Assembly: GCA_964570515.1 (NCBI GenBank)
Contig: CAZMYM010000002.1
Span: 89,045-153,044 of the forward strand
From: an uncultured Thermotogae bacterium
Lineage (GTDB): Bacteria; Bipolaricaulota; Bipolaricaulia; UBA7950; UBA9294
Length of the DNA stretch: 64,000 nucleotides
Reading direction: 5' to 3'
The position numbers were made by a program, and so were the translations under genes. Below the pieces are notes generated by a model. That model saw only the letters and a program-made list of their open reading frames with translations. It was not told the DNA's origin and searched no databases. This document shows, piece by piece, positions 3,715 to 42,155 of this stretch (the first letter of the stretch is position 1; each line of letters opens with the position of its first letter).

Positions 3715-3771
3715 GATCCCACCCGACCTGAGGACGAACGGGCGCTGGACAGCGGCCGCTCAACGAACGAT

Positions 3772-5613
3772 CTACGGCAGGAGTCGGCGATCGAAGACGA
3801 AGTCGGACGCATTGCCGCTGTGCCCGGTCGGATGCCCGTTCGGGTTGGCCATCTCCGCGTTTCCCACGTAGTCGTAGTACGCGTAGCGAAAGGCCCCGTA
3901 GACCGTGTAGATCATGCTCGCATCCTCGGCCGCCCGCTGCTGGATCTCCTCGTAGCTCTCAAACGTCGCCTCGTTGTCCAACGTCGCGACCCCCGCTTCG
4001 AACAGCTCGGCGATCTCCAGATCCACTTCGGTCGGCTCGTCGCATGCACTGCGGCGCCAGAAGTGGAGCCGCCCGCAATTCCCGTAGACGCCGGCGAGGC
4101 TGTTCGGCTCATTCCCGCCCGTGAACGCGAGGAGGAGCGCGTCGAACGATCCGGTGTACATCGCCGTGAGGACAGCGTTCACCTCTCCCGGAACGAATCG
4201 GACGTCCAGCCCGATCAGGCGCGCGCGATCGGTGATGATGATTGCCATCCCTTCGGAGTCAGACAATCCCGAGACCGTGGCAAGCGTGATCGAGACGCGC
4301 CCGCCGTCCTCATAGTCTCGCCAGCCGTCCTCGTCTCGGTCGACGATCCCGATTCCATCGAGCAGACGAGCCGCCTTGTCCAAGTCGTACTCGAAGATCA
4401 CGGCGCCCGTCTCGGTGATTGGCCCCCCGTACAGGTCACGGCCTGCGTAGAAGGGCGAGCCGAAGCTGAGTGGGCTCCACTGGGGAAGCGCGAGTCCATG
4501 GAAGATCGAGTCGATCATCGCCTGTTTGTCGAGCAGGTGAGCAAACGCTTGTCTGAACGTCCGGTTCCGGTAGAGATCTCGCTTGCTCGCGTCCGTTCCG
4601 TCGGCGAGACCGATGTCCTGGTTGAACGCAAGCCAGGACGTCCCGTACGTCGCGATGTGAGGGTCAACTTCCACACTGAATCCCCGCAGCGCCGCTTTCC
4701 CCATGAGGAACGGCAGATCGCTCGTGCGTGGCGCGAATCCGTTGATCTCCCCGTTGAGGAACTTGAGCAACGCAACGTCGTCACTCGGCACGACCAGCAA
4801 GACCCGCTCGTCGTAGTACGGCAGCTGTGTGCCTTGCCCATCGTATACGTAGTAGAACGGATTCCGCTTCAGCACAACGTGCTGGTCGGGCACGAAGCTC
4901 GATGGGACATACGGTCCCATCCCCACGATCTCCGAGAGTTCTGTGTCAAGTCCCAAGGCGGAGTCGAAGGTCCCCGGCTCCACGTCCGGATTCAGTTTGT
5001 GGACAAACCGAGCCAGCTTATGCTTCGGCAGGATTTTCTGTCCCATCGCCGAGAGGATCGGACGAAAGGGCACGGACGTCGTGACCGTCACCGTGTACTC
5101 GTCCACCTTCGCGATCGTGGGGAACGATCCGTCGGGAAGACGCAGCCCATCGCGAAGGCCGGTCGTCACGTCCTCATTCAGAATCACGTCGTTGAACGTG
5201 AACAACACGTCGTCCGCCGTGAACGGCGCTCCGTCCGACCAGCGAAGCCCTCGGCGGACATGAAAGGTGATCGTTTGGTCGTCGCTGGAGACCTCCCAGC
5301 TCTTGGCGAGCGCGGGATCGAGCGAGCCCGTGACCGGATTCAAGCCGACAAGGCCGTGGAAGATGTGGTTCGTGTAGAGGGTCGTCGACGTCTCCATCGC
5401 GGTCGTCGGGTTCCAGCGCTTTGGGTTCCCAAGAGCGAACTGGTAGAACGTGCCTCCTCGGACGCCGGGCTCCAGATCCGCCCAGGCTGTCCCCGGTTCG
5501 CCGAGCGCTAGGACCTTGGCGTCGGCCGGAATCTCGGAATAGCCCTGTCCGCAGGCAAGGAGGCTGACGAAGAGGCATGCCAGAGCGGTCAGCACGAAAG
5601 CTCTTCGCCTCAT
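3772..5613 (-). CDS. ABC transporter substrate-binding lipoprotein, family 5 (OppA/DppA-like)
   Basis: 613 aa with a signal peptide and Cys lipobox (FVSLLAC|GQG). It sits directly upstream of two peptide-type permeases, and its size and composition fit SBP family 5. Confidence 0.8.
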   Translation of the reverse strand: MRRRAFVLTALACLFVSLLACGQGYSEIPADAKVLALGEPGTAWADLEPGVRGGTFYQFALGNPKRWNPTTAMETSTTLYTNHIFHGLVGLNPVTGSLDPALAKSWEVSSDDQTITFHVRRGLRWSDGAPFTADDVLFTFNDVILNEDVTTGLRDGLRLPDGSFPTIAKVDEYTVTVTTSVPFRPILSAMGQKILPKHKLARFVHKLNPDVEPGTFDSALGLDTELSEIVGMGPYVPSSFVPDQHVVLKRNPFYYVYDGQGTQLPYYDERVLLVVPSDDVALLKFLNGEINGFAPRTSDLPFLMGKAALRGFSVEVDPHIATYGTSWLAFNQDIGLADGTDASKRDLYRNRTFRQAFAHLLDKQAMIDSIFHGLALPQWSPLSFGSPFYAGRDLYGGPITETGAVIFEYDLDKAARLLDGIGIVDRDEDGWRDYEDGGRVSITLATVSGLSDSEGMAIIITDRARLIGLDVRFVPGEVNAVLTAMYTGSFDALLLAFTGGNEPNSLAGVYGNCGRLHFWRRSACDEPTEVDLEIAELFEAGVATLDNEATFESYEEIQQRAAEDASMIYTVYGAFRYAYYDYVGNAEMANPNGHPTGHSGNASDFVFDRRLLP

Positions 5614-6329
5614 CCGACGTCCCCCCTCCTCACGGTGAAGCGGTGGGCGAGAACCCGCATGTACGCCTCGGCAAGCTCCGTGTGGATCATCGTGTGCTCC
5701 ATGATCTTCACCGTGATCTCCACCTCCGTTAGCGACGACGTCTGAATGAGGTGCGATGCCAGTGCCAGCCCGGCCGCGACTCGCATCCCGTGGCTCACTC
5801 CGTGAAGTGCCTGGTCCATCAGGTCCGCCTCACTCATCGGATCGAATGAAGCGTAGAAACCCGCCAGCGCTTCTCCGGCCGCCAATGCCAGTTCAGCACT
5901 CTGGCTCTCCGTCGCGTCCGACTCGAGTCTGTCTGCCGACAGCGTCGTGCGGATCTTGAGGTAGTACGCACGCGCCGCGTTCAATCGCTCGGTGGAAGAT
6001 ACGGCCGAAATCGCAAGAGCCTTCAGCTCTTCTTCAGCTAGGATGATCAGCGGTTGGAGCGGATCGGCCAGCGAGTCGAGCGCCGTCTGAGCCGCAAGTC
6101 GAATCCCCTGGGTGCGGCCGGCCTCGGCCAGCGCCACGAGATCCCCAGCCGTCTTGGTCAGCGCGTAGTGGTCGGCGAGCGCCAGTCCAGCGGCCATGCT
6201 GACTTCGCGAATCGCGTCCGAGCCGACGATCTTCTCCAACTCCGCTACGGAGCGGGAATGGCTCAACATAGACACCGCCAACGTCCCCACGAGGACCCAG
6301 CACGTGCAACGAAGCCACAGTCGCGCCAT
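5610..6329 (-). CDS. Hypothetical secreted Ala/Leu-rich repeat protein
   Basis: 239 aa with a hydrophobic N-terminus. The motif AAGLALA/AAGEALA recurs three times. Its stop overlaps the SBP start by 4 nt. Confidence 0.55.
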   Translation of the reverse strand: MARLWLRCTCWVLVGTLAVSMLSHSRSVAELEKIVGSDAIREVSMAAGLALADHYALTKTAGDLVALAEAGRTQGIRLAAQTALDSLADPLQPLIILAEEELKALAISAVSSTERLNAARAYYLKIRTTLSADRLESDATESQSAELALAAGEALAGFYASFDPMSEADLMDQALHGVSHGMRVAAGLALASHLIQTSSLTEVEITVKIMEHTMIHTELAEAYMRVLAHRFTVRRGDVG

Positions 6330-6552
6330 TCACCCTCCTCGGCTTGGATGCTCCACCGGCCTTCGCCCCTAAGCGATCGGCTCGCCATTGGCGAGTCGTG
6401 GGCGAGTTCCCTGCATACACTACACGAGGGTGCAGGGAGCATCAATCCTCATCGAGACGAACTCCAAGGAATACGACAGAATCTGTTGACGCTCAGGGTC
6501 TCCGCCCGCAAGCAGACGTCCTTTCAGAAGGCCCGTCTGTTCCTCGGCGCAA

Positions 6553-6581
6553 TTGACGGCTTCTCGGAGCATCACTATGCT
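6553..6581 (+). promoter_or_regulatory. Sigma-70-like promoter upstream of spoVS
   Basis: TTGACG (6553-6558), 17-nt spacer, TATGCT (6576-6581), about 57 nt upstream of the ATG. Confidence 0.4.
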
Positions 6582-6638
6582 GGGTCGGCATTAGCCACAT
6601 CATGGGGAGCGCTGTCGGTACGCCTCGGAGGGCAAGCC

Positions 6639-6899
6639 ATGGAGATCCTGAAGGTCGCATCGCGGTCCAATCCCAATTCCGTTGCCGGCGCGATCGCCGG
6701 TGCGCTCGAACAGGACCGCGCCGTCGAGGTGCACGCGATCGGCGCGGGAGCCGTCAACCAGACGGTGAAAGCGATCGCCATCGCTCGTCGGTTGATCGAG
6801 AGAGACGGTGCCTCTCCGATCAAGGTGGTTCCCGGATTCATAGAGCTACAGATCGATGGAGCGACGAAGACCGGAATGCGGTTCATCGTCGAGAAGTAG
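6639..6899 (+). CDS. spoVS: SpoVS-family protein (stage V sporulation protein S homologue)
   Basis: 86 aa: MEILKVASRSNPNSVAGAIAGALEQDRAVEVHAIGAGAVNQTVKAIAIARRL...FIELQIDG matches the SpoVS pattern (KVS..SNPNSVAGA...IGAGA.NQAVKA.AIAR). GGAGGG precedes the ATG. Only the last 86 codons of the 281-aa track ORF look real. Confidence 0.85.
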   Translation: MEILKVASRSNPNSVAGAIAGALEQDRAVEVHAIGAGAVNQTVKAIAIARRLIERDGASPIKVVPGFIELQIDGATKTGMRFIVEK

Positions 6900-6923
6900 T
6901 CTTTCCAGTATCCTTCTGTCCCC

Positions 6924-8582
6924 ATGGCGACACACCTCGAAAACCTGATCGCGGGCGCTGTTGCGTCGGCCTACTCGGCCGCCTTCGGAGAAGATCTCCC
7001 GGCAAGCGCAATCGAGATCCGGCCGACCGATCGGCCCGAGTTTGGAGACTACTCGACGAACGCCGCACTGGTGGCAGCCTCGAATGCGGGCACGTCCCCG
7101 CGTGACCTCGCCGCGGATCTTGCTCAGCGAATCGCGCAGGCGGACGGTCGCTCGTGCTTCCGAGAGATACAGGTCGCCGGCCCTGGCTTCGTCAACTTCT
7201 TCTTCCAGCCAACGGCGATCCAGTCGTCTCTCTCGCATCTGTTGGGTCTCGGCGACCGTTACGGGCGGTCCGACCGCGGAGAGGAAGAAAGGATCCAGAT
7301 CGAGTTTGTGAGCTCGAACCCGACCGGTCCGTTGACCGTTGGCCATGGGCGTCAGGCGGTCTTGGGCGATGTGCTCGCCAACCTCTACGAGCGCCTGGGC
7401 TTCGACGTGAGCCGCGAGTACTACTTCAACGACGAAGGACGACAGATCGATCTTCTCGCGGAGTCTTTGTGGATCCGGTACAGAGAGCTGTTCGGCGAGG
7501 ATCGGGAGATCCCCGAGGACGGGTACCGCGGCGAGTACCTCAAGGACGTCGCCCGAACCGTCCGCGACGAGCTGGGTGATGGATTCCTCGAGTTCGATGG
7601 AGAGACGAGCGATTGGTTCCGCCGCGAAGCGGTTCATCGCATGACCGATCGAATCAAGGCCGATCTCGGGGCGCTCGGCGTCCGATTCGATGAGTGGTTC
7701 AGCGAGGCCACGCTTCACGGCTCCGGCGAGGTCGACCGGGCGCTCGCCGCACTCCGCGAACACGACGGCGTGTACGAGCAGGACGGTGCCGTCTGGCTGA
7801 AGGCCGAGGACCACGGAGGCGCGAAGGATTCAGTGCTCTTCCGCAGCGACGGCCGCCCGACCTACTTGATGGTCGACATCGCTTACCACCTCAACAAGCA
7901 CGATCGCGGATTCGATCGCGTGATCGACGTGCAGGGGTCCGACCACCACGCGGAGCAGACGTGCGTCCTGGCGGCTCTGCGCATTCTCGGCCTTCCGGAA
8001 GGCTGGCTCTCCTACGCTGTGCATCAGTTCGTGAGCCTCAAGGAGGGGGGCGAGACGCTGAAGATGTCCACGCGGGCCGGCCGGTTCGTCACATTGGGAG
8101 ATCTGATCGACGAGCTTGGGTCGGACATCGTCCGCCATTTCATGATCTCGCGGAAGCCCGAGGCTCACCTCGACTTCGATCTCGATCTGGCGCGGAGCGA
8201 GTCGCGGGACAATCCGGCGACCTACGTCCAGTACGCGCACACACGGATCACGTCGATCTTCCGCAAAGCGGGAGATGAAACGATCGCCGAGGCGACACCC
8301 GATCTCTCTCCGCTCACCGAGACGGAGGAACTCGACTTGATCAAAGTGCTCGACCGCTTCCCCGAAGTCACCGAGAACGCGGCGCTGTCGTTCGCCCCTC
8401 ATCTCCTCGCGGACTACGCCCTTCAGCTGTCGAGGGCTTTCCACGGCTACTACGACAGGCACCGCGTCTTGTCGGACGATGCGGAACTCACAGCCGCTCG
8501 GCTCGCCCTCCTTCACGGACTGCGGATCGTCCTTCGTGAGAGCCTCGAGATCCTCGGCATGGCCGTCCCGGAGGAGATGTAG
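6924..8582 (+). CDS. argS: Arginine--tRNA ligase
   Basis: 552 aa with the class I synthetase layout. Key segments are SSNPTGPLTVGHGR (HIGH-type region) and MSTRAGRFVTL (KMSK-type), with a C-terminal ...VPEEM end typical of ArgRS. Confidence 0.9.
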   Translation: MATHLENLIAGAVASAYSAAFGEDLPASAIEIRPTDRPEFGDYSTNAALVAASNAGTSPRDLAADLAQRIAQADGRSCFREIQVAGPGFVNFFFQPTAIQSSLSHLLGLGDRYGRSDRGEEERIQIEFVSSNPTGPLTVGHGRQAVLGDVLANLYERLGFDVSREYYFNDEGRQIDLLAESLWIRYRELFGEDREIPEDGYRGEYLKDVARTVRDELGDGFLEFDGETSDWFRREAVHRMTDRIKADLGALGVRFDEWFSEATLHGSGEVDRALAALREHDGVYEQDGAVWLKAEDHGGAKDSVLFRSDGRPTYLMVDIAYHLNKHDRGFDRVIDVQGSDHHAEQTCVLAALRILGLPEGWLSYAVHQFVSLKEGGETLKMSTRAGRFVTLGDLIDELGSDIVRHFMISRKPEAHLDFDLDLARSESRDNPATYVQYAHTRITSIFRKAGDETIAEATPDLSPLTETEELDLIKVLDRFPEVTENAALSFAPHLLADYALQLSRAFHGYYDRHRVLSDDAELTAARLALLHGLRIVLRESLEILGMAVPEEM

Positions 8583-9534: not shown

Positions 9535-12312
9535 ATGAAGTACGTCTACTTCTTCAGCAAGGACCAATCGGATGGCGACGCAAAGATGAAGGAACTGCTC
9601 GGCGGAAAGGGAGCCAACCTCGCTGAGATGGCGAGTCTGGGCCTCCCGGTGCCCCCGGGCTTCACGTGCACGACCGAGGCTTGCGACAAGTACTACAAGC
9701 TTGGGAAGACGAAGCTGTTCGCCTCATTGAAGCCGGAGATCGACGCAGCGCTGAAGCGGCTTGAGAAGGCCACGGGCAAGACGTTCGGGGTAGGGCCAAA
9801 CCCGCTCCTCCTGTCCGTCCGGTCAGGCGCCGCCGTTTCGATGCCGGGGATGATGGACACGGTCCTCAACCTCGGCCTCACGCCGGCGACGATCAAGGCG
9901 CTGATCGAATCGAGCGGCAACGAGCGCTTCGTGATGGACTCCTATCGGCGCTTCATCCAGATGTTCGGAAACGTCGTGATGGGCGTCGACCACCACGCGT
10001 TCGAGCACGAGCTCGAGGCGGTCAAGAAGGCGAAGCGAGCGAAGCTCGACACCGACCTGAGCGTGGCCGGCCTCGTCGAGGTCATCGAGCGCTACAAGGC
10101 GGTCTACAAGAAGGCCACCGGCAAAGCGTTCCCGACCAGTCCGATGGAGCAGCTCTACGCAGGGATCGACGCCGTCTTCCGCTCGTGGAACACGCCGCGC
10201 GCAGAGAAATACCGCCAGCTGAACGACATTCGCGGCCTCCTCGGAACCGCGGTCAACGTGCAGACGATGGTCTTCGGCAACAGCGGTGAGAACTCCGCCA
10301 CCGGCGTCGCGTTCACGCGCGATCCGTCGACGGGGGACAACAAGTACTTCTACGGGGAGTACCTCGTCAACGCCCAGGGCGAGGACGTGGTCGCCGGCAT
10401 CCGCACGCCTCAGGAGATCACGCTGAAGGGATCCCGAGCGTGGGCGAAATCACAGGGCGTCAGCGAAGGGGAGCGGAAAGCCAATTTCCCGTCGCTCGAG
10501 GAAGTGATGCCGAAGGCGTTCAAGCAACTCGACGCGATCCGCGTCAAGCTGGAGAAGCGCTACAAAGACATGCAGGATCTCGAATTCACGATCGAGAACG
10601 GAAGCCTCTACATCCTGCAAACGCGAAACGGAAAGCGGACGGCCCAGGCCGCCGTGCGAATCGCCACCGACCTCGCCAAAGAAAAGCTGATCTCCGAGAA
10701 GCAGGCGGTGCTCCGTGTCGACCCCGCGTCGCTCGATCAGTTGCTCCATCCCGTGTTCGTCAAGGCATCCGAGGACAAGGCCCAGCAGATCGCCGTCGGG
10801 CTTCCCGCCTCGCCGGGCGCCGCTACGGGCCAGGTCGTGTTCACCGCCGAGGACGCCGAGGCGTGGGCCGCCAAGGGCAGGCGCGTCATCCTCTGCCGTA
10901 CCGAGACGAGCCCCGAAGACATCGGCGGCATGGACGCCGCCAACGGGATTCTGACCTCGCGTGGCGGCATGACCTCCCACGCCGCTGTCGTCGCTCGAGG
11001 CATGGGACGATGCTGCGTGGCTGGCGTCGGGGACGTCAACATCAACTACAAGACGAAGCGGTTCACCTGCAGTGGCGTCACGATCAAAGAGGGCGACTGG
11101 ATCTCCCTCAACGGATCCAAGGGATTCGTCTACAAGGGTCAGATCGACACCGTTGACCCGAGCCTGACCGGTCCGTTCGGCACGATCATGAAGCTTGCCG
11201 ACAAGTACCGGAAACTCGGCGTCCGCACGAATGCGGACACCCCGCACGATGCGGCCGTGGCCGTGAAGTTCGGCGCCGAAGGAATCGGCCTCTGCCGAAC
11301 CGAGCACATGTTCTTCGAGGGAAGCCGAATCGTCTCCTTCCGGCGACTGATCCTCGTCGCCGAGACGGTCAAGCGACTCCGTGAAGCCCACGGCATCGTG
11401 GATCTGGCCGCCCTGCAGAAGGCATGCGGCAAGGATGCCAAGGCCGTCGAGGCGATCAAGCAGTACCGACAGGCACTGCGGGAACTCCTCCCGCTGCAGC
11501 GCAAGGACTTCGCCGGGATCTTCAAGGCGCTCAAGGGCAGACCGTGCACCGTCCGTCTGCTCGATCCGCCACTCCACGAATTCCTTCCGCAGGATGCGGC
11601 AGGGCAGAAGGAGATGGCCGAGACGATGGGCGTCAAGCCGATCGAGATCAAACGCCTCGTCGAGGCCCTGCACGAGTTCAACCCGATGCTCGGCCATCGG
11701 GGCTGCCGACTCGGGATCACCTACCCTGAAGTGACCGAGATGCAGACGCGCGCGATCTGTGAGGCCGCCGTGGCCGTCAAGGGCTCGAAGCCCGAGATTA
11801 TGATCCCGCTCGTCGGGCACGTGAAGGAGCTCGCGAACCAGAAGGCGATCGTCGAACGGACCATCGCCGACGTGGAACAGAAGAAAGGCGTCAAGCTGAA
11901 CGTCCTCATCGGCACGATGATCGAGGTCCCGCGGGCCGCGGTGACCGCCGATGAGATCGCGAAGGAAGCGGAGTTCTTCAGCTTCGGAACGAACGACCTC
12001 ACCCAGATGGGCTGCGGCTTCTCACGCGATGACGCCGGGAAGTTCCTCGGCGACTACGTCGAGATGGGCGTCTACGAGTACGACCCGTTCCAGGTGCTCG
12101 ATCAGGACGGCGTCGGGAAGCTCCTTTCGATGGCCTGCGAGCTCGGGCGGAAGGCCCGCCCTGACATCAAGCTAGGGATCTGCGGCGAACACGGCGGCGA
12201 GCCGAAGTCGGTCGCCTTCTGCCACAAGGTCGGCCTCGACTACGTCAGTTGCAGTCCCTACCGCGTGCCGATTGCACGCTTGTCAGCAGCTCAAGCAGCC
12301 ATTCGAGGCTAG
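9535..12312 (+). CDS. ppdK: Pyruvate, phosphate dikinase
   Basis: 925 aa. The N-terminus MKYVYFFSKDQSDGDAKMKELLGGKGANLAEM and the phosphohistidine region GGMTSHAAVVARGMG fit PPDK, as does the C-terminal PEP-utilising TIM domain. GGAGG RBS. Confidence 0.95.
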   Translation: MKYVYFFSKDQSDGDAKMKELLGGKGANLAEMASLGLPVPPGFTCTTEACDKYYKLGKTKLFASLKPEIDAALKRLEKATGKTFGVGPNPLLLSVRSGAAVSMPGMMDTVLNLGLTPATIKALIESSGNERFVMDSYRRFIQMFGNVVMGVDHHAFEHELEAVKKAKRAKLDTDLSVAGLVEVIERYKAVYKKATGKAFPTSPMEQLYAGIDAVFRSWNTPRAEKYRQLNDIRGLLGTAVNVQTMVFGNSGENSATGVAFTRDPSTGDNKYFYGEYLVNAQGEDVVAGIRTPQEITLKGSRAWAKSQGVSEGERKANFPSLEEVMPKAFKQLDAIRVKLEKRYKDMQDLEFTIENGSLYILQTRNGKRTAQAAVRIATDLAKEKLISEKQAVLRVDPASLDQLLHPVFVKASEDKAQQIAVGLPASPGAATGQVVFTAEDAEAWAAKGRRVILCRTETSPEDIGGMDAANGILTSRGGMTSHAAVVARGMGRCCVAGVGDVNINYKTKRFTCSGVTIKEGDWISLNGSKGFVYKGQIDTVDPSLTGPFGTIMKLADKYRKLGVRTNADTPHDAAVAVKFGAEGIGLCRTEHMFFEGSRIVSFRRLILVAETVKRLREAHGIVDLAALQKACGKDAKAVEAIKQYRQALRELLPLQRKDFAGIFKALKGRPCTVRLLDPPLHEFLPQDAAGQKEMAETMGVKPIEIKRLVEALHEFNPMLGHRGCRLGITYPEVTEMQTRAICEAAVAVKGSKPEIMIPLVGHVKELANQKAIVERTIADVEQKKGVKLNVLIGTMIEVPRAAVTADEIAKEAEFFSFGTNDLTQMGCGFSRDDAGKFLGDYVEMGVYEYDPFQVLDQDGVGKLLSMACELGRKARPDIKLGICGEHGGEPKSVAFCHKVGLDYVSCSPYRVPIARLSAAQAAIRG

Positions 12313-34117: not shown

Positions 34118-35218
34118 CTAGTTCCTCTCCTCCTCAGAGAACACGAACGTACGTTTGAGGTCGTTGAACCAGTCGAACGGGATCATGCCGTCATGTTGTA
34201 GCCTGCCGACCACGATTCCGGGAGCAATCCCGAGTCCATCCGCAAACGCGCGAACTCGTGCCTTGGAGAGGGGCGTCTTGCGGACTAGCGAAAGGAACTG
34301 GTCCTCTGGGATTAAGTGCCTCGCCGCAAACGCGTCCGCTTCTTGCTCCTCGTCCGACGCGTCCATCGACTCCTCATCGATGAAGACGGCTCGTTTCCCG
34401 TGCAGGAGCACATGAGCCGCCTCGTGAAAGAAGGTGAACCAGAAGTGATCGTCCTTCCGGTGGCGGAGGCTCTGGACGATCAGCGCCTTGTCCGATGAGA
34501 TCCATCGCGTAGCGCCCGAGAGACGCGTCTTCGGCAGCTCGGGGACGAAGACCAGCGCGACGCCCACCTCGGCGCAGAGCCGCTTCATGCGTGGCTCGAA
34601 TTCGGACACCGGAAGGCGCGTGAGACGGCGGATCTCATTCAGCGCATCGAGGAATCCGGTCTTGTCAAACGGCTCGGTGCTGGCTTCCGCTGCTCCAAGG
34701 TCACCGATCCGTAGCCACGCCGCAACCGCCTCTCTGGAGCTGATAAACGCGGGCGACTTGCGGTAGGCGACGACGAGCCGATCGTACTGCCTCTCCCAGG
34801 CGTCCGGACTCGTGACTCCGAAGAACTGCAGCAACGCCCGAACCTTCTCCTGTTTGCTGCAACGCGAGGGAATCCAGCCGCGCTTCGCGAGCGCCTGTAG
34901 GGGAAAGCGTTTTGCCCACTCGACATAGGACGACAGCCTATCTTGCTCCTTTCTTGTTGCGATGTGGAGCCGATGGTTTTGATCGAGGTTCATCCACAAA
35001 CTCGCACGCGTCCCCAGAACGTGCTCGAACGTCAACGCAGTCTCCGACGTGATCGACGCTTTCCCATTGATGATCTGACTCACATGCTTTTCCGATAACC
35101 CGCAACGCGAGGCGAATTCCGATTGCGAGATGGATCGCGCTCGTAGTGTCTCGCCAAGGATCTCGCCCGGATGAACTGAGTAGTCTGGGCTGAACACTTG
35201 CTGCTTGTTGGTGCTCAT
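34118..35218 (-). CDS. higA: HigA-type XRE antitoxin fused to an ImmA/IrrE metallopeptidase domain
   Basis: The N-terminus HPGEILGETLRARSISQSEFASRCGLSEKHVSQIINGKASIT is a HigA-type HTH. The C-terminus has FTFFHEAAHVLLHGK (HExxH). Its ATG shares 1 nt with the higB stop. Confidence 0.8.
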   Translation of the reverse strand: MSTNKQQVFSPDYSVHPGEILGETLRARSISQSEFASRCGLSEKHVSQIINGKASITSETALTFEHVLGTRASLWMNLDQNHRLHIATRKEQDRLSSYVEWAKRFPLQALAKRGWIPSRCSKQEKVRALLQFFGVTSPDAWERQYDRLVVAYRKSPAFISSREAVAAWLRIGDLGAAEASTEPFDKTGFLDALNEIRRLTRLPVSEFEPRMKRLCAEVGVALVFVPELPKTRLSGATRWISSDKALIVQSLRHRKDDHFWFTFFHEAAHVLLHGKRAVFIDEESMDASDEEQEADAFAARHLIPEDQFLSLVRKTPLSKARVRAFADGLGIAPGIVVGRLQHDGMIPFDWFNDLKRTFVFSEEERN

Positions 35219-35553
35219 CAGTGGTAGTCCTCCACTCCGAGAATCCGAATCGACGTGACGCGCTCCAGGTCGATGGAGCCGTCTTCAAGAAACGGGATCG
35301 GGTTGTTTGCTGGCTGCAGGATGATTCGGTACGGGTGCTTGACGTCCACGGCGTACTGGCCCTGCCGTTTCCCAGAGAGCGCGTGCAAACGCTCTGGACG
35401 CTTCGAGGGCACGTCAGCCAAGCATTCAGCAGCGTCCAGAACGATCATGCGCCGCATGATCAACCGAGCGTTCTCCTTCCCGAACTCACGTACCAGAAGG
35501 GTTTCCGAGCTCATGATCTTCCGAAGCTTCGACGACTTGAAGAGGATCTCCAT
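35218..35553 (-). CDS. higB: HigB / 'killer protein' RelE-superfamily toxin
   Basis: 111 aa from ATG 35553: MEILFKSSKLRKI...LHALSGKRQGQYAVDVKHPYRIIL...VEDYH matches the plasmid-maintenance killer protein pattern (...L.G.R.G.wS.ri...wRi.F......DYH). Confidence 0.75.
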   Translation of the reverse strand: MEILFKSSKLRKIMSSETLLVREFGKENARLIMRRMIVLDAAECLADVPSKRPERLHALSGKRQGQYAVDVKHPYRIILQPANNPIPFLEDGSIDLERVTSIRILGVEDYH

Positions 35554-35583
35554 GCATCCCACGCACCTCGCCCGGCGCCGTTA

Positions 35584-35612
35584 ACCTTACCAGATTGGTA
35601 AAGGATAAGCAA
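35584..35612 (-). promoter_or_regulatory. higBA promoter with embedded palindromic operator
   Basis: On the minus strand: TTGCTT, 17-nt spacer, TAAGGT. The spacer holds the perfect palindrome TTACCA-N3-TGGTAA (35587-35601). Confidence 0.5.
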
Positions 35613-35878
35613 CAGATGGCAGATCGAGCAGCGATCTCCATCAACCCAAGTCCGGGTGATTCGAGGACCGGAAGCCCAGTCTCGGGCCGCGCGGTGCAGA
35701 GACATGGTATGCGTCCCTGAACTCCTCTTCGTACGATGCCAACTCCGGCGTGCATCGCCGGGGCTGCCAAGAAGCCGAGGCGCCAGGATTCGCACTTGTC
35801 ACACGGACGGGGCCGCCGATACAGTGAGAGCAATCCAGTTATCTGGAGGCGGATCGCCCGTGCAGGGCGAGCGTGAGG

Positions 35879-35905
35879 AGGCCCGCAAGGGCCTTTTCAT
35901 TTCGG
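35879..35905 (+). terminator. Rho-independent-terminator-like hairpin within a 430-bp ORF-poor gap
   Basis: GGCCC-GCAA-GGGCC followed by TTTTCATTT, and preceded by a second hairpin TCGCCC-GTGCA-GGGCGA. Confidence 0.4.
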
Positions 35906-36052
35906 TCTGGGGGAAGAAGACCTTCCCGTAGCACCAGATTCCGCTGACTGGTCCCTGCGTACCGGCACGGTGCCCACGCGGGTTCGCCCCCGGAACTCCC
36001 GGCATGCAATCTTCTCCCTCTGACGCGTCGGTAGCTCCAGTACGGCGATTAT

Positions 36053-36081
36053 TTGACCGCCTCCAATCTATGCCGTAGAAT
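36053..36081 (+). promoter_or_regulatory. Near-consensus sigma-70 promoter of abiEi-abiEii
   Basis: TTGACC (36053-36058), 17-nt spacer, TAGAAT (36076-36081), 50 nt upstream of the ATG. Confidence 0.55.
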
Positions 36082-36131
36082 AGCCACACAACGAAGAACG
36101 CTTCTCTCTGTAGAACCTTGGAGACCATCCA

Positions 36132-36971
36132 ATGAAAGCCGAAAAGAAACTGAAGAGGTCGCAGGTCGGAGTGGAACTCATCCGGGTTCTGGTTTCCGAG
36201 GGCGATCGCATCTTCTCGACGAAGCGGGCAAGGGAGCTTGCCCCTCGCGTTGGCTTGAGCGATTCGTACCTTGTGGAAGCATTGCACCACCTGCGCAACA
36301 ACGGGTGGATCGTCTCACTGCGCCGAGGTCTCTACGCGGTGTCAGCATCGGTCCCAGGAGTCACCCCTGTCCATGAGTTCGAGATCGCCGCAGCGCTGGT
36401 CGCCCCCGCGGCCATCAGCCATTGGTCGGCCCTGCATTACCACGGCATGACGGAGCAGCTTCCGCGACGAGTGTTCGTGCTGACGACGACGGAGACGTCC
36501 GTTCCCCGGGCACGTGGAACGCACACCGCACGAGACGGCAATGCCTATCGGATTGGCGAGACGACCTATCAATTCGTTCAGGTCAAGCCGGAGAGGTTCT
36601 TCGGGACAGGGAGAGCGTGGATTGGAGACTCCCGCGTGCCCGTCACCGATCCCGAACGCACGTTGCTTGACGGACTCTCCCGACCTCAGTATTGTGGCGA
36701 CTTCGCCGAAGTTCTCCATGCATTCGAGGTGTGGCGAGATCACCTGCGGATCGATCGGCTCATCAACTACGCGCGCCAATTGGACGCAGCGGTCTCCAAG
36801 CGCTTGGGGTGGGTGCTTGAGAATCAAGGCACCCAGACAGAACGACTTGAGGCCCTCAGGGAGCTTGCCATCAAAGGCTATCGGAAGCTCGATCCGACCG
36901 GGCCACGCGCGGGCCCGCTCAACCGTCGCTGGATGATCCAGGAGAACCTTCCAGGAAGGCTTCGGCGATGA
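36132..36971 (+). CDS. abiEi: AbiEi-family antitoxin / transcriptional regulator (type IV TA)
   Basis: 279 aa with an N-terminal wHTH-like segment (FSTKRARELAPRVGLSDSYLVEALHHLRNNGWIV). The AbiEi-like core contains AAISHWSALHYHGMTEQLPRRVFVLT. 4-nt overlap with the next gene. Confidence 0.75.
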   Translation: MKAEKKLKRSQVGVELIRVLVSEGDRIFSTKRARELAPRVGLSDSYLVEALHHLRNNGWIVSLRRGLYAVSASVPGVTPVHEFEIAAALVAPAAISHWSALHYHGMTEQLPRRVFVLTTTETSVPRARGTHTARDGNAYRIGETTYQFVQVKPERFFGTGRAWIGDSRVPVTDPERTLLDGLSRPQYCGDFAEVLHAFEVWRDHLRIDRLINYARQLDAAVSKRLGWVLENQGTQTERLEALRELAIKGYRKLDPTGPRAGPLNRRWMIQENLPGRLRR

Positions 36972-37843
36972 AGCCGCTCTACACGCGTTTGCAGGAAGTC
37001 AGAGGGAAACTCGGGACGCCGTGGGAGATTCTTGAACGCGACTACCTCCTCTCTTGGATTCTCGCTGGCATCGGGCTGGTCGATTCGCTGAGCGGGACCC
37101 TCGTCTTCAAGGGCTGGACTGCACTCAAGAAGTGCTACTTCGGCGATTATCGTTTCTCGGAGGATCTCGACTTCTCCACCCTGCAGGGCGCCCCAATCGG
37201 CGATGCGATGGAACACGCGATCGGAGAGAGCTGTCAGGCAGCCGCCGAGTTGCTTGATGAGTACGCGCCCGTAGAGATCGTGTCCGAGCGATACACCGAG
37301 ACCGATCCGCACCCGGAAGGCCAGGAAGCCTTCACGATTCGCGCGCGTTTCCCATGGCACAGGCAACTGCATACGCGTGTCAAGATCGAGATCACCCAGG
37401 ACGAAGAGATCCTCAAACCCACGGCAACGCGACAGGTCATCCACGAATACGGCGAGCCCTTCGATGCCGAGGTCCAGACCTACGCCTTGGAGGAAATCGT
37501 TGCGGAAAAGCTCCGTGCGATCCTCCAGCATATGGAGAAGCTTCAAACACGAGGATGGAGCCGCTCGCGCGCTCGTGACTACTACGATCTCTGGCGGATC
37601 ATCGGGACCTATGGCGATCGATTCCATCTTTCCGGTTTCGTGCCGTTCCTCCACGAGAAGTGCGCCGCACGCAACGTCAGTTTCGAAGGCCCTAGCAACT
37701 TCTTCCAGGAACCGATGCTCTCGTACGTCGAAGCGACATGGGAGCAGTCGCTCGGTCCGCTGGTTCCCGAACTGCCGCCCTTCGAAACCGTGATCGGAGA
37801 GCTGCGCCCGCAGATCGCGGATCTGATATCGCCAGGGGAATGA
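36968..37843 (+). CDS. abiEii: AbiEii/AbiGii nucleotidyltransferase toxin (DUF1814)
   Basis: 291 aa. LVFKGWTALKKCYFGDYRFSEDLDFS is the characteristic (GG)TAL...Y...RFSEDLDF motif. Confidence 0.8.
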   Translation: MKPLYTRLQEVRGKLGTPWEILERDYLLSWILAGIGLVDSLSGTLVFKGWTALKKCYFGDYRFSEDLDFSTLQGAPIGDAMEHAIGESCQAAAELLDEYAPVEIVSERYTETDPHPEGQEAFTIRARFPWHRQLHTRVKIEITQDEEILKPTATRQVIHEYGEPFDAEVQTYALEEIVAEKLRAILQHMEKLQTRGWSRSRARDYYDLWRIIGTYGDRFHLSGFVPFLHEKCAARNVSFEGPSNFFQEPMLSYVEATWEQSLGPLVPELPPFETVIGELRPQIADLISPGE

Positions 37844-38003
37844 GGATCGGGTTCCTGGTTAGTTCCTGAGGACCGGCGCGTTGCGCTCGAGGGATTCCAC
37901 AGGAGGCAAGAGACCGGGGCAACCCCATTCCGCCTGTGCAGCCAGCAAGCCAAGCTCTGCGACGTTCAGCAACGGGTCGAGGTGTGCGTTCTCGGCGTTT
38001 CAG

Positions 38004-38279
38004 CTACATGCAGACACCCACGATCTGCAAGATTGTGCCCAGCGCGACCAGGGCAAAGCCACTGCGGTTCAGTATCTTGGCCCGCTTCAGATAAGCATTA
38101 GCAATTGGCTGCCACTCGCCGTCAGGAACGTCGGGCACCTCTGAATCTGCGAACTTTATCATGGATATGCCAGATATGACGACATTCCCGATTCTCTTCG
38201 TAGGCAGTCCGTAGAAAAACAAGAGACATGCTCCCGTGAGCGTGAGTGCGAGGCCTCCGGCGGAGAGGAACACTGACAT
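38004..38279 (-). CDS. Small 2-TM membrane protein
   Basis: 91 aa from ATG 38279, preceded by AGGAGG. Hydrophobic helices at both ends (LSAGGLALTLTGACLLFFYGL; GFALVALGTILQIVGVCM). It starts 16 nt after the Zn-ribbon gene. Confidence 0.6.
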   Translation of the reverse strand: MSVFLSAGGLALTLTGACLLFFYGLPTKRIGNVVISGISMIKFADSEVPDVPDGEWQPIANAYLKRAKILNRSGFALVALGTILQIVGVCM

Positions 38280-38295
38280 GCAGATCTCCTCCTTT

Positions 38296-38904
38296 CTATG
38301 GTGCGTTACCGTGGCAAAACGCCTTGGCGTCTTCCAGAACCTGACGGATTCTGGTCTCAGGCCAATCGGCTTCCTTGAGCTGTGTGAGCTTGGCGAAGTA
38401 GCCGCGTTCGTGTGCGATCCGATTCCGCACATCGTCAATCTCGCGGACTAGCGGATCCCAGGTTGGTGAGAGCACAAGTGTGTCACTCCGAGTCATGTGC
38501 TCTGTGACCGCAAGGAGGCCGGAGAGAGTGACCTGCTTGGGATGGTTCGGAATCTGCCCCCAGATTGAGCTGACCCTAGGAGTCGCCGCAGTCAGGCTCG
38601 ATGTCGGTGTGAAGCTCCGTAGGTTCTCCCACAGGATGAACTCCACGTTGACGGCCGCGACGAGCAGCGCCGCTGCATGCTCGGCCTTCGCCAGCAGCCT
38701 ATCGACCTCCTGCCAGCCGATGATGAGCTTCGCATCCACTGACGCGCTTACCCGCACTTGCGCGTGCATCTCCCCGAACTTGGTTCGCTTCGTCGACCCG
38801 CAATTGGGACAGGGCATACGCTTCGCTCCTTCAGGCCGAGGATCCTCAGCGGGTAACCACGTTTCGCAGTCGCTGCATCTGTCTTGACCACGTTTGACAC
38901 TCAC
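38296..38904 (-). CDS. Zinc-ribbon protein with C-terminal HEPN-like Rx4H motif
   Basis: 202 aa. CxxC-x18-CxxC (CSDC...CPNC) at the N-terminus. DDVRNRIAHERG (R160-x4-H165, nt 38410-38427) near the C-terminus. Its start overlaps the MTase stop by 4 nt. Confidence 0.65.
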   Translation of the reverse strand: MSVKRGQDRCSDCETWLPAEDPRPEGAKRMPCPNCGSTKRTKFGEMHAQVRVSASVDAKLIIGWQEVDRLLAKAEHAAALLVAAVNVEFILWENLRSFTPTSSLTAATPRVSSIWGQIPNHPKQVTLSGLLAVTEHMTRSDTLVLSPTWDPLVREIDDVRNRIAHERGYFAKLTQLKEADWPETRIRQVLEDAKAFCHGNAP

Positions 38905-41699
38905 TTGCTGATCTCCTCGTTTGAAGCAGTCGCCCGTTCGAGGTTGAGGGTGAGGAGGCGTTCGAGGATCTGGTCGTCGGGGAGGTCGTGGGGCCAGGCG
39001 TAGGCGTCGAGTACCGCCTCATCGAGGCGGCAGTGGGCGAGGTCGAGCCAGGTGGGGCGCTGGTTGTAGAGGTTGGTGAGGGTGCGCTTCTTGAGTTCGC
39101 TTTCGCTCGCGCCTTCGGGGTTCAGCCAACGGTCGCGCTTCGCGACGAGTTCCTTCGCCGCTGCGGCGATCGCCTGGACGCGCGGATCGTCGACCGGCTC
39201 GGTTCCAGGCGCCCACGGGAACGGGAACGTCTCGAAGCAGGTCGTCGGCGTGTAGCGGAAGCCGCTTTCTCGCTCACGCACCTGGGTGCCCTGCCGACGG
39301 GCCCACAGCTCGTGAACCTTCGAGTGGAGGACGCCGAAGAAGTAGGCGTCTTCGCGGGCGAAGACGATGGTGGCATCATTGGCCACAACTTCCTGCGCCA
39401 GCCAGACGAAAAGGCGATGCTTGGCGTGTCTAGGCGTGCAGATGAACCGGCTCTTTGCCGAGAGAGCTTCTCTCATTCCAGGGCGAGGTTCTGCGTACTG
39501 CCACCACTTCTCCGCGTAGGCGCGCCTTCGATTCTTCGAGCGGATCGGGTAGACGTGCTTCCTGGCGTATTCGAATGGCATCTCGTACTGAGAGGCCTCT
39601 TCGACGGACATCAGGGCGAAGTCGACGGTCCACACCCCACGCGACCCTCGCGCGATATCAACAGCACTGTAGACACGGCGCACCACATCTGAGTTCGGGC
39701 GGGCGTTTGGATTGCCTGCCGAAGCCAACATCGCCATTGCAGTTTCACGAGGGATGTCGAACGGCCCCTTTGGCGATGGTCCCTGGTATGAGATGCCGAG
39801 GTTCTCAGCTAGGACCGCACGCTTCGTCAAGTCGAGCATGGAAGTGAGATCGGAGTTGACGGATTGAACAGGTTCTTCGTCCAGCTCACACTCGGGTTCG
39901 CTTCCGTCATCGAAGCCGAGCATCGAAACGTGTACCGCCGCGCCTTCGAGGATCCACTCCCGGTCGGACTGCGCCCAGAAGATGTCCCCGGTCTCCTTGA
40001 TCCGCTTGAGAACCGTCCGGTTCACGCCTCCTCGGATCGCTTGCGTCGCCAGGAGACCGGCGCGGCGGAGCTTGCCGCTCTGGATTGCGGACCGTGCCTT
40101 CTCGAACCAGTAGCAGCAGAGATCTGAGAAAGCAGGAACACGGTCTTCGTACTTCCGGAAGAGGCTATCGACGTAGCAGTCTCCGAGTTCCTGGCGGATC
40201 CGATTCCCACCAACGAACGGCGGATTTCCGATGGCGACGTCGGCCTCGGGCCATTCGGGCTCGATTGGGTTCCCGTCCTCGTCGAACGCGAGGATCGCGT
40301 CCATCTCGTGGATGTTGTCGAGGGCCTTCAGGATCGGTTCGGACGGCTGGCCGAACCCGTTCTCGCGCAGCCACTGGATGTAGCCGATCCAGATGGTGGC
40401 CTGAGCGAGCTCGTGGGCGTACTCGTTGATCTCGATCCCGTAGAGCTGTTCGGGGCTGACGGTCGGGAAGAACATGCCGAGACCCACGTTGGCCGAGAAG
40501 GCGATGACCTCCTTCTCCAAGTTGAGCATCTGGCGCAGCGCAACATAAAGGAAGTTCCCGCTGCCGCAGGCGGGATCGAGGACCTTGGTGTCGGCGATCT
40601 CGTCGGCGAACCCGGTCAGGCACTTCGACAGTCGGTTCCGCGCTCGCGTCTTTGCCCCGCCGGCGGAATCGGCCGCCTGCCACTTCTCGTGCAGCTCGGC
40701 GGCTTGGGTTTGCACTTCCTCCCAACGTCGCCGAAGCGGGCGCATCAGGACCGGCTCAACGATCAGCAGGATGTCGTCGCGGCTGGTGTAGTGCGCGCCG
40801 AGCTGGGCGCGCTTCCCCGGATCGAGCCCGCGCTCGAACAGCGTCCCGAGGATCGACGGTTCGATCGACGACCAGTCGAGGCGAGCGACGCGGGAGAGGA
40901 TCTCCAAATCGTCGCGTCCGAGCGGGAGTGTCTCGCGGCTGTCGAAGATCCCGCCGTCGAAGTGCGGGATCCGTTCGAGTCCGAAGTACCCTCCGTCGGC
41001 CATGTGGCCGAACAGCTCCTCGACCAGTTCGCGGGCTCGACTCGGATCGTCCTTGGAGCTACCGATCAGTTTGGTGAAGAGATTCTCCGGGAGCAGGCCG
41101 ATGTCCTCGGCGAACAGGCAGAACAGAATGCGGATCAGGAAGTGGGCCGCCTTCTCGGGATCGTGCCCGGCAGTCCGGAGCGACTCGGCAAGCTTTCCGA
41201 ACTCGGCGGCTGCCTGCTTGGTGACGCCTTCGGTCGTCTGCTCGGCGCGGAGCCGCTCCGGGTGCTCGAACGCGTTACGCAGGATTTGGAGCCCGTCCTT
41301 CGTCAGCAGATCGTCGAACGTGAGCGTGAACGTCTGCTTGATCGTGTTGGTGAAGTTGGTGTGGATGACGATCGTCTCCATGTCGGAGACGATGAGGAGC
41401 GGCGGGTTGAGGAGCGCGTCGCGATAGAGCTGGAGCTGTTCGTAGGCCTTGTCGAGATTCTTGTGTTTGCCCTTGTACTCCCAGGCGAAGGCGCCCTTCT
41501 TCCAGACGTCGGCCCAGCCCTCGCCGCCGGTCCGCTTGGTCGCGCCCTTCTCGAACGTGAACGTCGCGCCTTCCGGATCGGCCTTCGCTGGCGTCGGATG
41601 CCCGAGCATTCGGCAGAGGTCGTTGAAGTGCGACTGCGATCCCGCGCTCTCCTTCAGCTTCGAGCGCCGCCACTTGTCGACGAATTCCTGCGCGGTCAT
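38901..41699 (-). CDS. MmeI-like Type IIL restriction-modification enzyme (N-terminal D...ExK nuclease + gamma-class N6-adenine MTase + TRD)
   Basis: 932 aa from ATG 41699. GWADVWKKGAFAWEYKGKHKNLDKAYEQLQLY (D..ExK), LIRILFCLFAEDIGL, LDWSSIEPSILGTLFE, LGAHYTSRDDIL, LDPACGSGNFL (motif I), GNPPFVGG (motif IV) and FRYTPTTCFETFPFPW all parallel MmeI as I remember it. Confidence 0.8.
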   Translation of the reverse strand: MTAQEFVDKWRRSKLKESAGSQSHFNDLCRMLGHPTPAKADPEGATFTFEKGATKRTGGEGWADVWKKGAFAWEYKGKHKNLDKAYEQLQLYRDALLNPPLLIVSDMETIVIHTNFTNTIKQTFTLTFDDLLTKDGLQILRNAFEHPERLRAEQTTEGVTKQAAAEFGKLAESLRTAGHDPEKAAHFLIRILFCLFAEDIGLLPENLFTKLIGSSKDDPSRARELVEELFGHMADGGYFGLERIPHFDGGIFDSRETLPLGRDDLEILSRVARLDWSSIEPSILGTLFERGLDPGKRAQLGAHYTSRDDILLIVEPVLMRPLRRRWEEVQTQAAELHEKWQAADSAGGAKTRARNRLSKCLTGFADEIADTKVLDPACGSGNFLYVALRQMLNLEKEVIAFSANVGLGMFFPTVSPEQLYGIEINEYAHELAQATIWIGYIQWLRENGFGQPSEPILKALDNIHEMDAILAFDEDGNPIEPEWPEADVAIGNPPFVGGNRIRQELGDCYVDSLFRKYEDRVPAFSDLCCYWFEKARSAIQSGKLRRAGLLATQAIRGGVNRTVLKRIKETGDIFWAQSDREWILEGAAVHVSMLGFDDGSEPECELDEEPVQSVNSDLTSMLDLTKRAVLAENLGISYQGPSPKGPFDIPRETAMAMLASAGNPNARPNSDVVRRVYSAVDIARGSRGVWTVDFALMSVEEASQYEMPFEYARKHVYPIRSKNRRRAYAEKWWQYAEPRPGMREALSAKSRFICTPRHAKHRLFVWLAQEVVANDATIVFAREDAYFFGVLHSKVHELWARRQGTQVRERESGFRYTPTTCFETFPFPWAPGTEPVDDPRVQAIAAAAKELVAKRDRWLNPEGASESELKKRTLTNLYNQRPTWLDLAHCRLDEAVLDAYAWPHDLPDDQILERLLTLNLERATASNEEISK

Positions 41700-41705
41700 T
41701 GGCGA

Positions 41706-41809
41706 CCCCCCGGGTCGCTTGAGAGAAGCTTCAATGGGTGGCTTCTCGTGTTCATCACTCTTCCCTCGGGTTGCTTGCGAGAAGCTTCCATCGGGCGCTG
41801 CTCGTGTTC
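41706..41809. repeat. Two imperfect 48-bp direct repeats in the MTase 5' leader
   Basis: 41706-41753 against 41762-41809, about 39/48 identical by hand with a 56-bp period. Copy A folds as GAGAAGC-11 nt-GCTTCTC just upstream of the RBS; both copies contain AAGCTT. Confidence 0.75.
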
Positions 41810-41966
41810 GGTTCTCAAGCAGTGTGTCTCCTGTGACCCATTGGCGCCACGTTCCCTCATTGCCGCGCGTTTCATACTGACCCCGTCGAGCCGTTCCGAT
41901 CTCTTCCGCTGAGGCGTTTGAGGCGATCCTGAGGCGTTGGCAGCGTCGATCCATGAGTCATTTGGG

Positions 41967-42155
41967 TCATTTCTGAGGCATTTCTTTCACTCGTTCGTAG
42001 TGGGTCCCCCGCCCTGCGCCGATTCTCCGCAGCACGCCCTTCGCGACCAGTTTGTCGAGATCGCGTGAGGCCGTTTGCCGACTCTCGCCCATGAGGTGCT
42101 CAGGAAGATGCGAAACACCGGACGCCTCCTTCCTCTCTCTTGCTTCAGGATGAGT
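41967..42155 (-). pseudogene. Remnant of a winged-helix DNA-binding protein C-terminus
   Basis: This frame differs from the 64-aa track ORF and reads ...HLMGESRQTASRDLDKLVAKGVLRRIGAGRGTHYERVKEMPQK*. It is open only back to a TAG at 42156-42158 and has no plausible full-length start. Confidence 0.5.

Follow-up and report, generated by a model that had tools for sequence, protein, structure and literature searches.

An MmeI-like restriction enzyme and a zinc-ribbon protein of likely HEPN ancestry form a conserved gene pair in a bacterial defense island

MmeI-type restriction-modification (R-M) enzymes are regarded as fully self-sufficient. MmeI itself works alone, and members of the family cut about 20/18 nucleotides (nt) from their site and methylate one strand only. 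What, then, is the role of a second gene whose start codon overlaps the stop codon of such an enzyme? The question is raised by a compact 3.7-kb cassette within a 64,000-nt stretch of DNA from an uncultured Thermotogae bacterium (contig CAZMYM010000002.1; the whole stretch is called the window here, and coordinates given without a locus name refer to it). Three minus-strand genes follow one another in tandem there, in a region with a G+C content of 59 to 62%: an MmeI-family enzyme of 932 amino acids (aa; 38901..41699), a 202-aa zinc-ribbon protein with an Rx4H motif of the HEPN type (38296..38904), and a 91-aa protein with two predicted transmembrane helices (38004..38279). The original prediction read these genes, from their sequence, as a possible composite restriction and abortive-infection module. 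The enzyme-HEPN pair stands up to a survey of related loci, whereas the trio as a unit does not, as the 91-aa gene is found in only 1 of 63 loci that encode relatives of the 202-aa protein. The reading we favor, although with about equal measures of belief and doubt, is that of a back-up RNase in the style of PrrC, coupled to a Type IIL enzyme in a two-gene operon within a defense island.

Of the 63 loci, GTDB genomes supplied 5 and metagenomes 58, and 55 have informative upstream sequence; several distant family members lie on short contigs that are uninformative for context. An MmeI-like coding sequence ends directly before the partner gene in 47 of the 55 informative loci (85%), so that homologues of the 202-aa protein recur immediately downstream of MmeI-family genes, as the original prediction had anticipated. 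The upstream gene is full length or cut by the contig end in 37 of these 55 loci, where it is 58 to 86% identical to the window enzyme. A C-terminal MmeI-like remnant alone precedes the partner in 10 loci, and the remaining 8 have no MmeI-like sequence upstream. The distance from stop to start is −4 nt at 23 loci, −1 nt at 1, +2 nt at 12, and +7 nt at 9, accounting for 45 of the 47 junctions, and a GGAGG (Shine-Dalgarno) sequence usually lies within the last codons of the enzyme. In the window, the partner GTG (38904 to 38902) and the enzyme TGA (38903 to 38901) have four nucleotides in common (GTGA, 38901..38904, minus strand), an overlap of the translational-coupling type that sits inside ...AAGTGAGTG... 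The pair is present in metagenome-assembled genomes (MAGs) labeled Bipolaricaulota, Eisenbacteria, and Thermotogae, indicating that it moves as a module. Further, a distant relative without the zinc ribbon (P0122, 39% identity) again follows an MmeI_Mtase/Eco57I-type enzyme, which is 1,132 aa long and different from that of the window. The conserved unit is the pair of enzyme and HEPN protein, not the trio, and the conserved gene order together with a family of 102 sequence clusters for the 202-aa protein makes the locus more than a chance arrangement.

At the remnant loci, the MmeI-like gene is cut to its first ~25 to 29 and/or its last ~40 to 115 codons (L029, positions 3192 to 7977; L030; L051, 1175 to 1348; L003, 7522 to 7998). 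A 1,517-aa STAND/NACHT-type NTPase with HEAT repeats lies between the two MmeI remnants in both L029 and L030. The remnant loci suggest cassette replacement inside a conserved frame.

The enzyme itself is, from its sequence, a complete MmeI-type single-chain R-M enzyme (Type IIL/IIG). Its open reading frame extends to an ATG at 41954 (1,017 aa); the 932-aa form starts at an inner ATG at 41699, which has a G-rich stretch ahead of it and is the start indicated by both the homologues, which align from residue 1, and the Pfam MmeI_N model. One polypeptide carries, in order, a PD-(D/E)XK nuclease, a helical spacer, a gamma-class N6-adenine methyltransferase, a target recognition domain (TRD), and a C-terminal domain. 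Four of the Pfam matches are above cutoff (MmeI_N, 3.2e-12; MmeI_hel, 8.3e-13; MmeI_Mtase, 3.7e-26; MmeI_TRD, 4.5e-09), and the MmeI_C match, at 20.7 bits, is under the Pfam cutoff of 27. The protein also matches the PADLOC model REase_MTase_IIG (2.4e-270) and the MmeI structure 5hr4 (E value of 2.8e-46). In the 5hr4 alignment, the nuclease signature D-X9-E-X-K (gwaDvwkkgafawEyK) aligns residue for residue with D70, E80, and K82 of MmeI, and the methyltransferase S-adenosylmethionine motif DPACGSGNFL and the NPPF motif are aligned to their MmeI counterparts. These matches bear out the original prediction that nuclease, methyltransferase, and TRD are intact. Direct reading likewise confirmed everything that it had stated at sequence level about gene structures, overlap, spacing, and motifs.

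The 202-aa partner contains two CxxC pairs, at residues 10 to 13 and 32 to 35, within a zinc-ribbon segment (CxxC...CPxCGS, residues 10 to 38; 38791..38877, minus strand) delimited from the family alignment. The public gene call (P0001) starts at Met30 and yields 173 aa. As the upstream CxxC is conserved in homologues, the longer form with the GTG start is the better call. The family comprises 102 relatives when clustered at 90% identity, all of them annotated as hypothetical and nearly all metagenomic; two named relatives come from Candidatus Bipolaricaulota MAGs. It is small, since a profile search among 1.84 billion representative sequences gave just 76 proteins. In tblastn searches of plasmids (PLSDB) and phages (INPHARED), the 202-aa sequence had no match. 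In close relatives, conservation covers the CxxC...CPxCGS ribbon at the N terminus and, at the C terminus, a helical domain: C32 and C35 are conserved at 90% or more in their alignment, and the first CxxC is conserved in the full-length members. The ribbon matches many zinc-ribbon Pfam families weakly. It is missing in some relatives (the 171-aa form of L067, and P0121 and P0122) and is thus dispensable for the core domain. The AlphaFold2 model (predicted local distance difference test [pLDDT] score of 86.9) has the same two parts, a ribbon at residues 1 to 43 and a helical domain at residues 60 to 200. In L034, a homologue of the 202-aa gene is seemingly broken in two by ~2.5 kb of inserted sequence, at residues ~64 and ~60 (positions 515 to 706 and 3228 to 3659), and may have been interrupted by a mobile element.

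Is the helical domain a HEPN domain? R160 and H165 (R160-N-R-I-A-H165; 38410..38427, minus strand, located by alignment and model) are the sole invariant residues over 24 sequences down to 19% identity, and a polar residue follows R160 in the motif context RNxIAH. HEPN domains are defined by an Rx4-6H motif with a polar residue after the arginine, a four-helix core whose helices 2 and 3 are separated by an insert, and placement of the motif at the end of helix 3 (PMC3710099). The AlphaFold2 model has helices at residues 76 to 96, at 152 to 165 (the third core helix, with the motif at its end), and, past a loop, at 183 to 200; segment 97 to 149, which precedes helix 152 to 165, is variable and wholly missing from some relatives. 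The placement of the motif in the model and the variable insert between helices 2 and 3 would fit the layout described for HEPN (PMC3710099). The profile HEPN_RiboL-PSP (PF18735) is matched by 15 of the 24 distant members. Two of these matches, P0135 (31.3 bits) and P0151 (29.6 bits), are above its gathering score of 28.4, and the profile of the window family retrieves both proteins (6.8e-14 and 4.5e-06, respectively). Weak matches to HEPN_Swt1 and HEPN_AbiV, and of distant members to HEPN-containing PADLOC models, lean in the same direction; the window protein itself has no HEPN match at E values up to 10. The 202-aa protein is therefore likely a member of the HEPN superfamily, as judged by transitive homology and motif rather than by direct match or fold search. 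The zinc ribbon and Rx4H motif of the original prediction are upheld by the invariance of the arginine and histidine and by the distant members above the PF18735 threshold. The 202-aa protein is most likely a metal-independent RNase.

We propose a back-up or abortive function for this protein because of the analogy with PrrC and EcoprrI and because of the many known linkages between HEPN proteins and R-M systems. In the proposed mechanism, the MmeI-family enzyme would cut unmodified incoming DNA and methylate that of the host. The HEPN protein would be made in step with the enzyme through translational coupling and would stay silent during normal growth. Once a phage blocks restriction, or restriction fails, the HEPN protein would be switched on and would cleave cellular or phage RNA, such that the infected cell no longer supports the phage. 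Candidate sensor or contact surfaces are the zinc ribbon and the HEPN insert (located between helices 2 and 3), both of which are hypervariable. Over 19 full pairs, mean pairwise identity is 0.72 in the HEPN core, 0.42 in the zinc ribbon (residues 1 to 45), and 0.32 in the HEPN insert (residues 97 to 149); in the enzyme, it is 0.77 to 0.79 in the nuclease, methyltransferase, and C-terminal regions and 0.55 in the TRD. We make no claim that TRD and HEPN insert coevolve, as their correlation (rho of 0.25, against 0.01 to 0.07 for other enzyme regions) is too weak and is confounded by linkage.

Several observations weigh against a functional tie of this kind. Partner genes are intact beside MmeI remnants (L003, L028 to L032, L042, L051, and L054/L055) and at the eight loci without MmeI. 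MmeI-like enzymes in 17 viral contigs (45 to 63% identity), a small control set, have no HEPN partner, which makes the partner an accessory of one clade that the enzyme does not need. The correlation between enzyme and partner identities is only modest (rho of 0.44). On the side of the HEPN assignment, Pfam, NCBIfam, and PADLOC gave no model match for the 202-aa protein other than the weak zinc-ribbon ones, and a PDB sequence-profile search with the family alignment returned nothing meaningful. Similarly, a Foldseek search of the AlphaFold2 model against PDB and BFVD found no match at an E value of 0.001 or less, the best E value not falling below 0.2; HEPN structures appeared only within the noise (AbiV 9bj7, HepS 9oij, 2hsb, and 1wol, with E values of 3.7 to 6). 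The survival of intact partner genes beside remnants, or in loci that lack the enzyme altogether, indicates that the partner is no constitutive toxin needing the enzyme as its antidote, and it speaks against a simple version of the back-up RNase in which the enzyme masks such a toxin. If active, the partner would instead have to be auto-inhibited or to require a signal.

The same loci lend themselves to the main rival explanation, which we consider possible although unlikely: the HEPN gene, often together with a gene for a ~195-aa protein, could be hitch-hiking cargo, that is, an autonomous defense or toxin module that has settled in a recombination hot spot of the defense island, 3' of the enzyme gene, and shares its transcript without cross-talk. 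Consistent with cargo, 8 loci have the partner but no MmeI, a further 10 have it next to a remnant, and the genes downstream of it are highly variable. The commonest third gene, found in 23 of the 63 HEPN-partner loci (for example, L003, 8658 to 9248; L005, 4123 to 4707; and L067, 5297 to 5875) and absent from the window, encodes a ~195-aa protein; others are Mrr-like, DUF3800, ATPase_2, CBS, and 8xMP-type genes, among further types. The ~195-aa family has no Pfam match, an N-terminal KLAEARFF helix, and an invariant GLRxLxVHH with an Rx4H of its own; from this sequence, its members may themselves be HEPN-like and pair with the HEPN partner. The idea that the 202-aa and ~195-aa proteins are paralogous HEPN proteins was dropped, as profile comparison showed no link between the two families (hhalign probability of 4.8%). 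The slot behind the enzyme can also take SLFN_AlbA_2 or SIR2-like genes, as described below, or the STAND NTPase within an MmeI remnant.

The mosaic structure of the cassette also fits a cargo origin. L033 is a syntenic relative of the window, and at the DNA level the two are 91% identical in the flanking AbiE genes, 84% in the membrane-protein gene and where the partner gene ends (3'), 78% in the enzyme C terminus and where the partner gene begins (5'), and 84% in the methyltransferase; the enzyme TRD and the central insert of the partner are unalignable. Against cargo stand the junctions of −4 to +7 nt, which have a Shine-Dalgarno sequence inside the enzyme gene and are far tighter than those of ordinary island neighbors, as do the presence of MmeI-like sequence directly upstream in most informative loci and the distant relative that likewise adjoins a Type IIG-like enzyme.

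Coupled expression and a putative nucleic acid-binding zinc ribbon could also be accommodated by two further roles for the partner: an addiction module, in which the HEPN toxin stabilizes the R-M cassette by postsegregational killing, or a noncatalytic regulatory or nucleic acid-binding subunit that tunes the enzyme. HEPN proteins do act as toxins in HEPN-MNT pairs (PMC3710099). The window, however, has no conserved antitoxin-like partner, and partner genes stay intact after loss of the enzyme. Conservation of exactly the catalytic arginine and histidine favors an active enzyme over a purely structural subunit. Also weighing against these roles, MmeI itself works alone and relatives have no partner. 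Taken together, we see little likelihood in either role.

The third gene of the window begins with an ATG 16 nt past the TAG of the 202-aa gene, and the intervening spacer (38280..38295, minus strand) contains AAAGGAGGAG (Shine-Dalgarno), read from the sequence. Its 91-aa product has two hydrophobic stretches, at residues ~3 to 24 and 72 to 91, and an AlphaFold2 model (pLDDT of 83) with helices at 2 to 24 and 57 to 90 and three short strands between them. Sequence and hydropathy thus agree with the two-transmembrane protein with its own AGGAGG that had been described originally. Eighteen clusters of relatives with invariant GACLLFFYGLP..K..GN and W..P.A...LN..GF motifs indicate that this is a real gene. 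Pfam, NCBIfam, and PADLOC gave no family or system match for the 91-aa protein and name no system for either small gene, in line with the original remark that this trio was not known as a named system. A relation of the 91-aa family to the 8xMP-type membrane protein of L041 was rejected (hhalign probability of 1.2%).

Might the three genes nevertheless form an obligate three-part system, with the 91-aa membrane protein as final effector or anchor? On one strand, they follow each other closely, and no promoter-like site separates them. Scanning the locus for promoters and terminators gave a result no better than that for shuffled sequence and so carries no information on the transcription unit. 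At least five distinct types of cassette have a member of the 91-aa family behind an MmeI-like gene, and an HEPN fusion described as "ZnR with two TMs" is listed in PMC3710099, which we take as a lead only. The distribution of the 91-aa gene argues the other way. Among the 63 HEPN-partner loci, it is present in L033, a near relative of the window, and absent from the other 62, so that the 202-aa and 91-aa genes are adjacent only in the window and L033. A search from the 91-aa side adds one HEPN-partner type (L067 to L069), in which a 195-aa gene intervenes. Its contexts mostly place the gene behind other middle genes: enzyme, SLFN_AlbA_2, a 243-aa protein, and the membrane protein in L064 to L066; enzyme, short HEPN partner, 195-aa gene, and membrane protein in L067 to L069; and enzyme, a SIR2-like 341-aa protein, and the membrane protein in L071 to L074. 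Further members lie in L070 and in L075 to L077; the contexts of the last three (MerC/DUF2199 and hydrolase) have no R-M gene. Homologues of the 91-aa protein thus do recur downstream of MmeI-like genes, as the original prediction proposed to check, but mostly behind middle genes other than the 202-aa one, and the lack of consistent co-occurrence also speaks against a recognized toxin-antitoxin pair of the two small genes. We judge an obligate trio improbable. In L033, L064 to L069, and L071 to L074, the 91-aa family comes last in an MmeI-like cassette, at its 3' end, where it tends to close a variable stretch with exchangeable, effector-type middle genes. The 91-aa gene stands apart as a loose attachment rather than as a third subunit that the pair requires, and it possibly encodes a membrane effector or anchor.

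The post-enzyme slot was also compared in sister cassettes whose enzymes are 67 to 69% identical. In L064 (4084 to 4884), it is occupied by SLFN_AlbA_2 (7.7e-11) and in L071 (2045 to 3070) by a 341-aa protein with a weak, under-cutoff match to SIR2_2 (2e-4); the 91-aa membrane family follows in both. SLFN_AlbA_2 and SIR2-like proteins are classic suicide-effector families, and we count their presence in this slot in favor of the back-up RNase. One could also imagine that this MmeI-like clade serves as a platform for sensing and that the position behind the enzyme is a swappable socket for effectors, an idea that is speculative and to our minds rather improbable. The socket would exchange zinc-ribbon-HEPN proteins (with or without the ~195-aa Rx4H protein), Schlafen/AlbA_2, and SIR2-like effectors, and the conserved 91-aa membrane protein would often close the variable stretch. 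The HEPN insert and zinc ribbon might then read the state of the enzyme (for example, a block by a DNA mimic) or its variable TRD. If true, this would amount to a general guard mechanism for single-chain restriction enzymes.

The cassette belongs to a defense island of ~7.8 kb (34118 to 41954) with housekeeping genes on both sides, a setting that favors the back-up reading. The same island holds a complete AbiEi antitoxin (36132 to 36971, plus strand) and AbiEii nucleotidyltransferase toxin (36968 to 37843, plus strand) pair with a 4-nt overlap (PADLOC, 2.9e-64 and 7.9e-64, respectively). This pair converges on the 91-aa gene, and the same pair, at the 91% DNA identity given above, flanks the L033 cassette. 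Beyond it lie genes for a 114-aa HigB-like toxin (35218 to 35562, minus strand) and a 366-aa protein with HTH_3 and an M78 (ImmA/IrrE) peptidase domain (34118 to 35218, minus strand), the latter matching PD-Lambda-2_B of PADLOC (2.1e-37). L003 seems, by sequence resemblance without alignment, to have a similar HigB-like/HTH-M78 pair after its HEPN partner gene (10382 to 11799), so that this pair may be carried along with the island. A short stretch of open frame closely precedes the enzyme gene (41967 to 42100, minus strand; ...HLMGESRQTASRDLDKLVAKGVLRRIGAGRGTHYERVKEMPQK*). It resembles the C-terminal winged helix of some larger gene, as found in proteins of the Schlafen/AlbA_2-HTH or Fic type, and is probably a gene remnant.

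How does the pair compare with known systems? HEPN genes next to R-M systems are a well-known arrangement. At least 16 HEPN clades with such linkage were described in 2013 (Anantharaman 2013, PMC3710099), and the same work already listed zinc-ribbon-HEPN fusions and R-M operon contexts for the Abi2/Swt1 assemblage. The 202-aa family itself is absent from Pfam, NCBIfam, and PADLOC, and no paper among those searched mentions MmeI together with HEPN in this sense. Of known HEPN groups, the HEPN_RiboL-PSP (PF18735) and Abi2/Swt1 assemblage has the RNxxAH motif in common with the window protein, whose modeled domain is likewise all-alpha, with a variable segment placed between helices 2 and 3. In contrast to that assemblage, the window protein and its close relatives reach no HEPN model directly, have no L-PSP or ParB partner, and are tied specifically to MmeI-like enzymes. 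With the concept predicted in 2013, the gain is incremental unless the swappable-socket idea holds. The cassette also defines an unnamed HEPN family of ~100 clusters and a small membrane-protein family, both of which defense-finding tools currently miss.

With MmeI (5hr4), the prototype Type IIL enzyme, the window enzyme shares the five-domain order and the aligned D-X9-EXK and NPPF motifs. Overall similarity is distant, and whereas MmeI is described as acting alone, the window clade has a coupled downstream gene. A close parallel to the proposed back-up RNase is the anticodon nuclease PrrC, whose gene lies within the EcoprrI R-M operon, a Type Ic system (PMC3710099). Both have an HEPN-type Rx4H protein within or next to an R-M unit, and both would provide two layers, DNA restriction followed by RNA cleavage if restriction is defeated. 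PrrC differs in having an N-terminal ABC/Rad50-like NTPase domain, in place of which the window protein has a ~45-aa zinc ribbon and no NTPase match, and there is no detectable sequence relation between the two. Further, the partner of PrrC is a Type I hsdMSR system that masks the nuclease until an anti-restriction factor activates it, whereas that of the window is a single-chain Type IIL MmeI enzyme, and window-type partners survive enzyme loss in several loci, unlike in PrrC/EcoprrI. A second parallel comes from BREX and BREX-related methyltransferase systems, which have auxiliary or "backup" effectors of the HEPN or Schlafen kind as neighbors (PMC12839542). There, HEPN or Schlafen RNase genes lie immediately beside a defense system built on PglX/MmeI-like methyltransferases, an arrangement like that of the window, and the alternation between HEPN and Schlafen is also seen in the slot after the MmeI-like clade of the window. 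The window differs in that it has no BREX core genes (BrxC, PglZ, and others) and that its enzyme has a nuclease domain of its own. A clade whose enzymes are coupled to an HEPN protein in nearly all cases would carry the two-layer "restrict, then abort" logic over from Type I and BREX-like systems to single-chain Type IIL enzymes.

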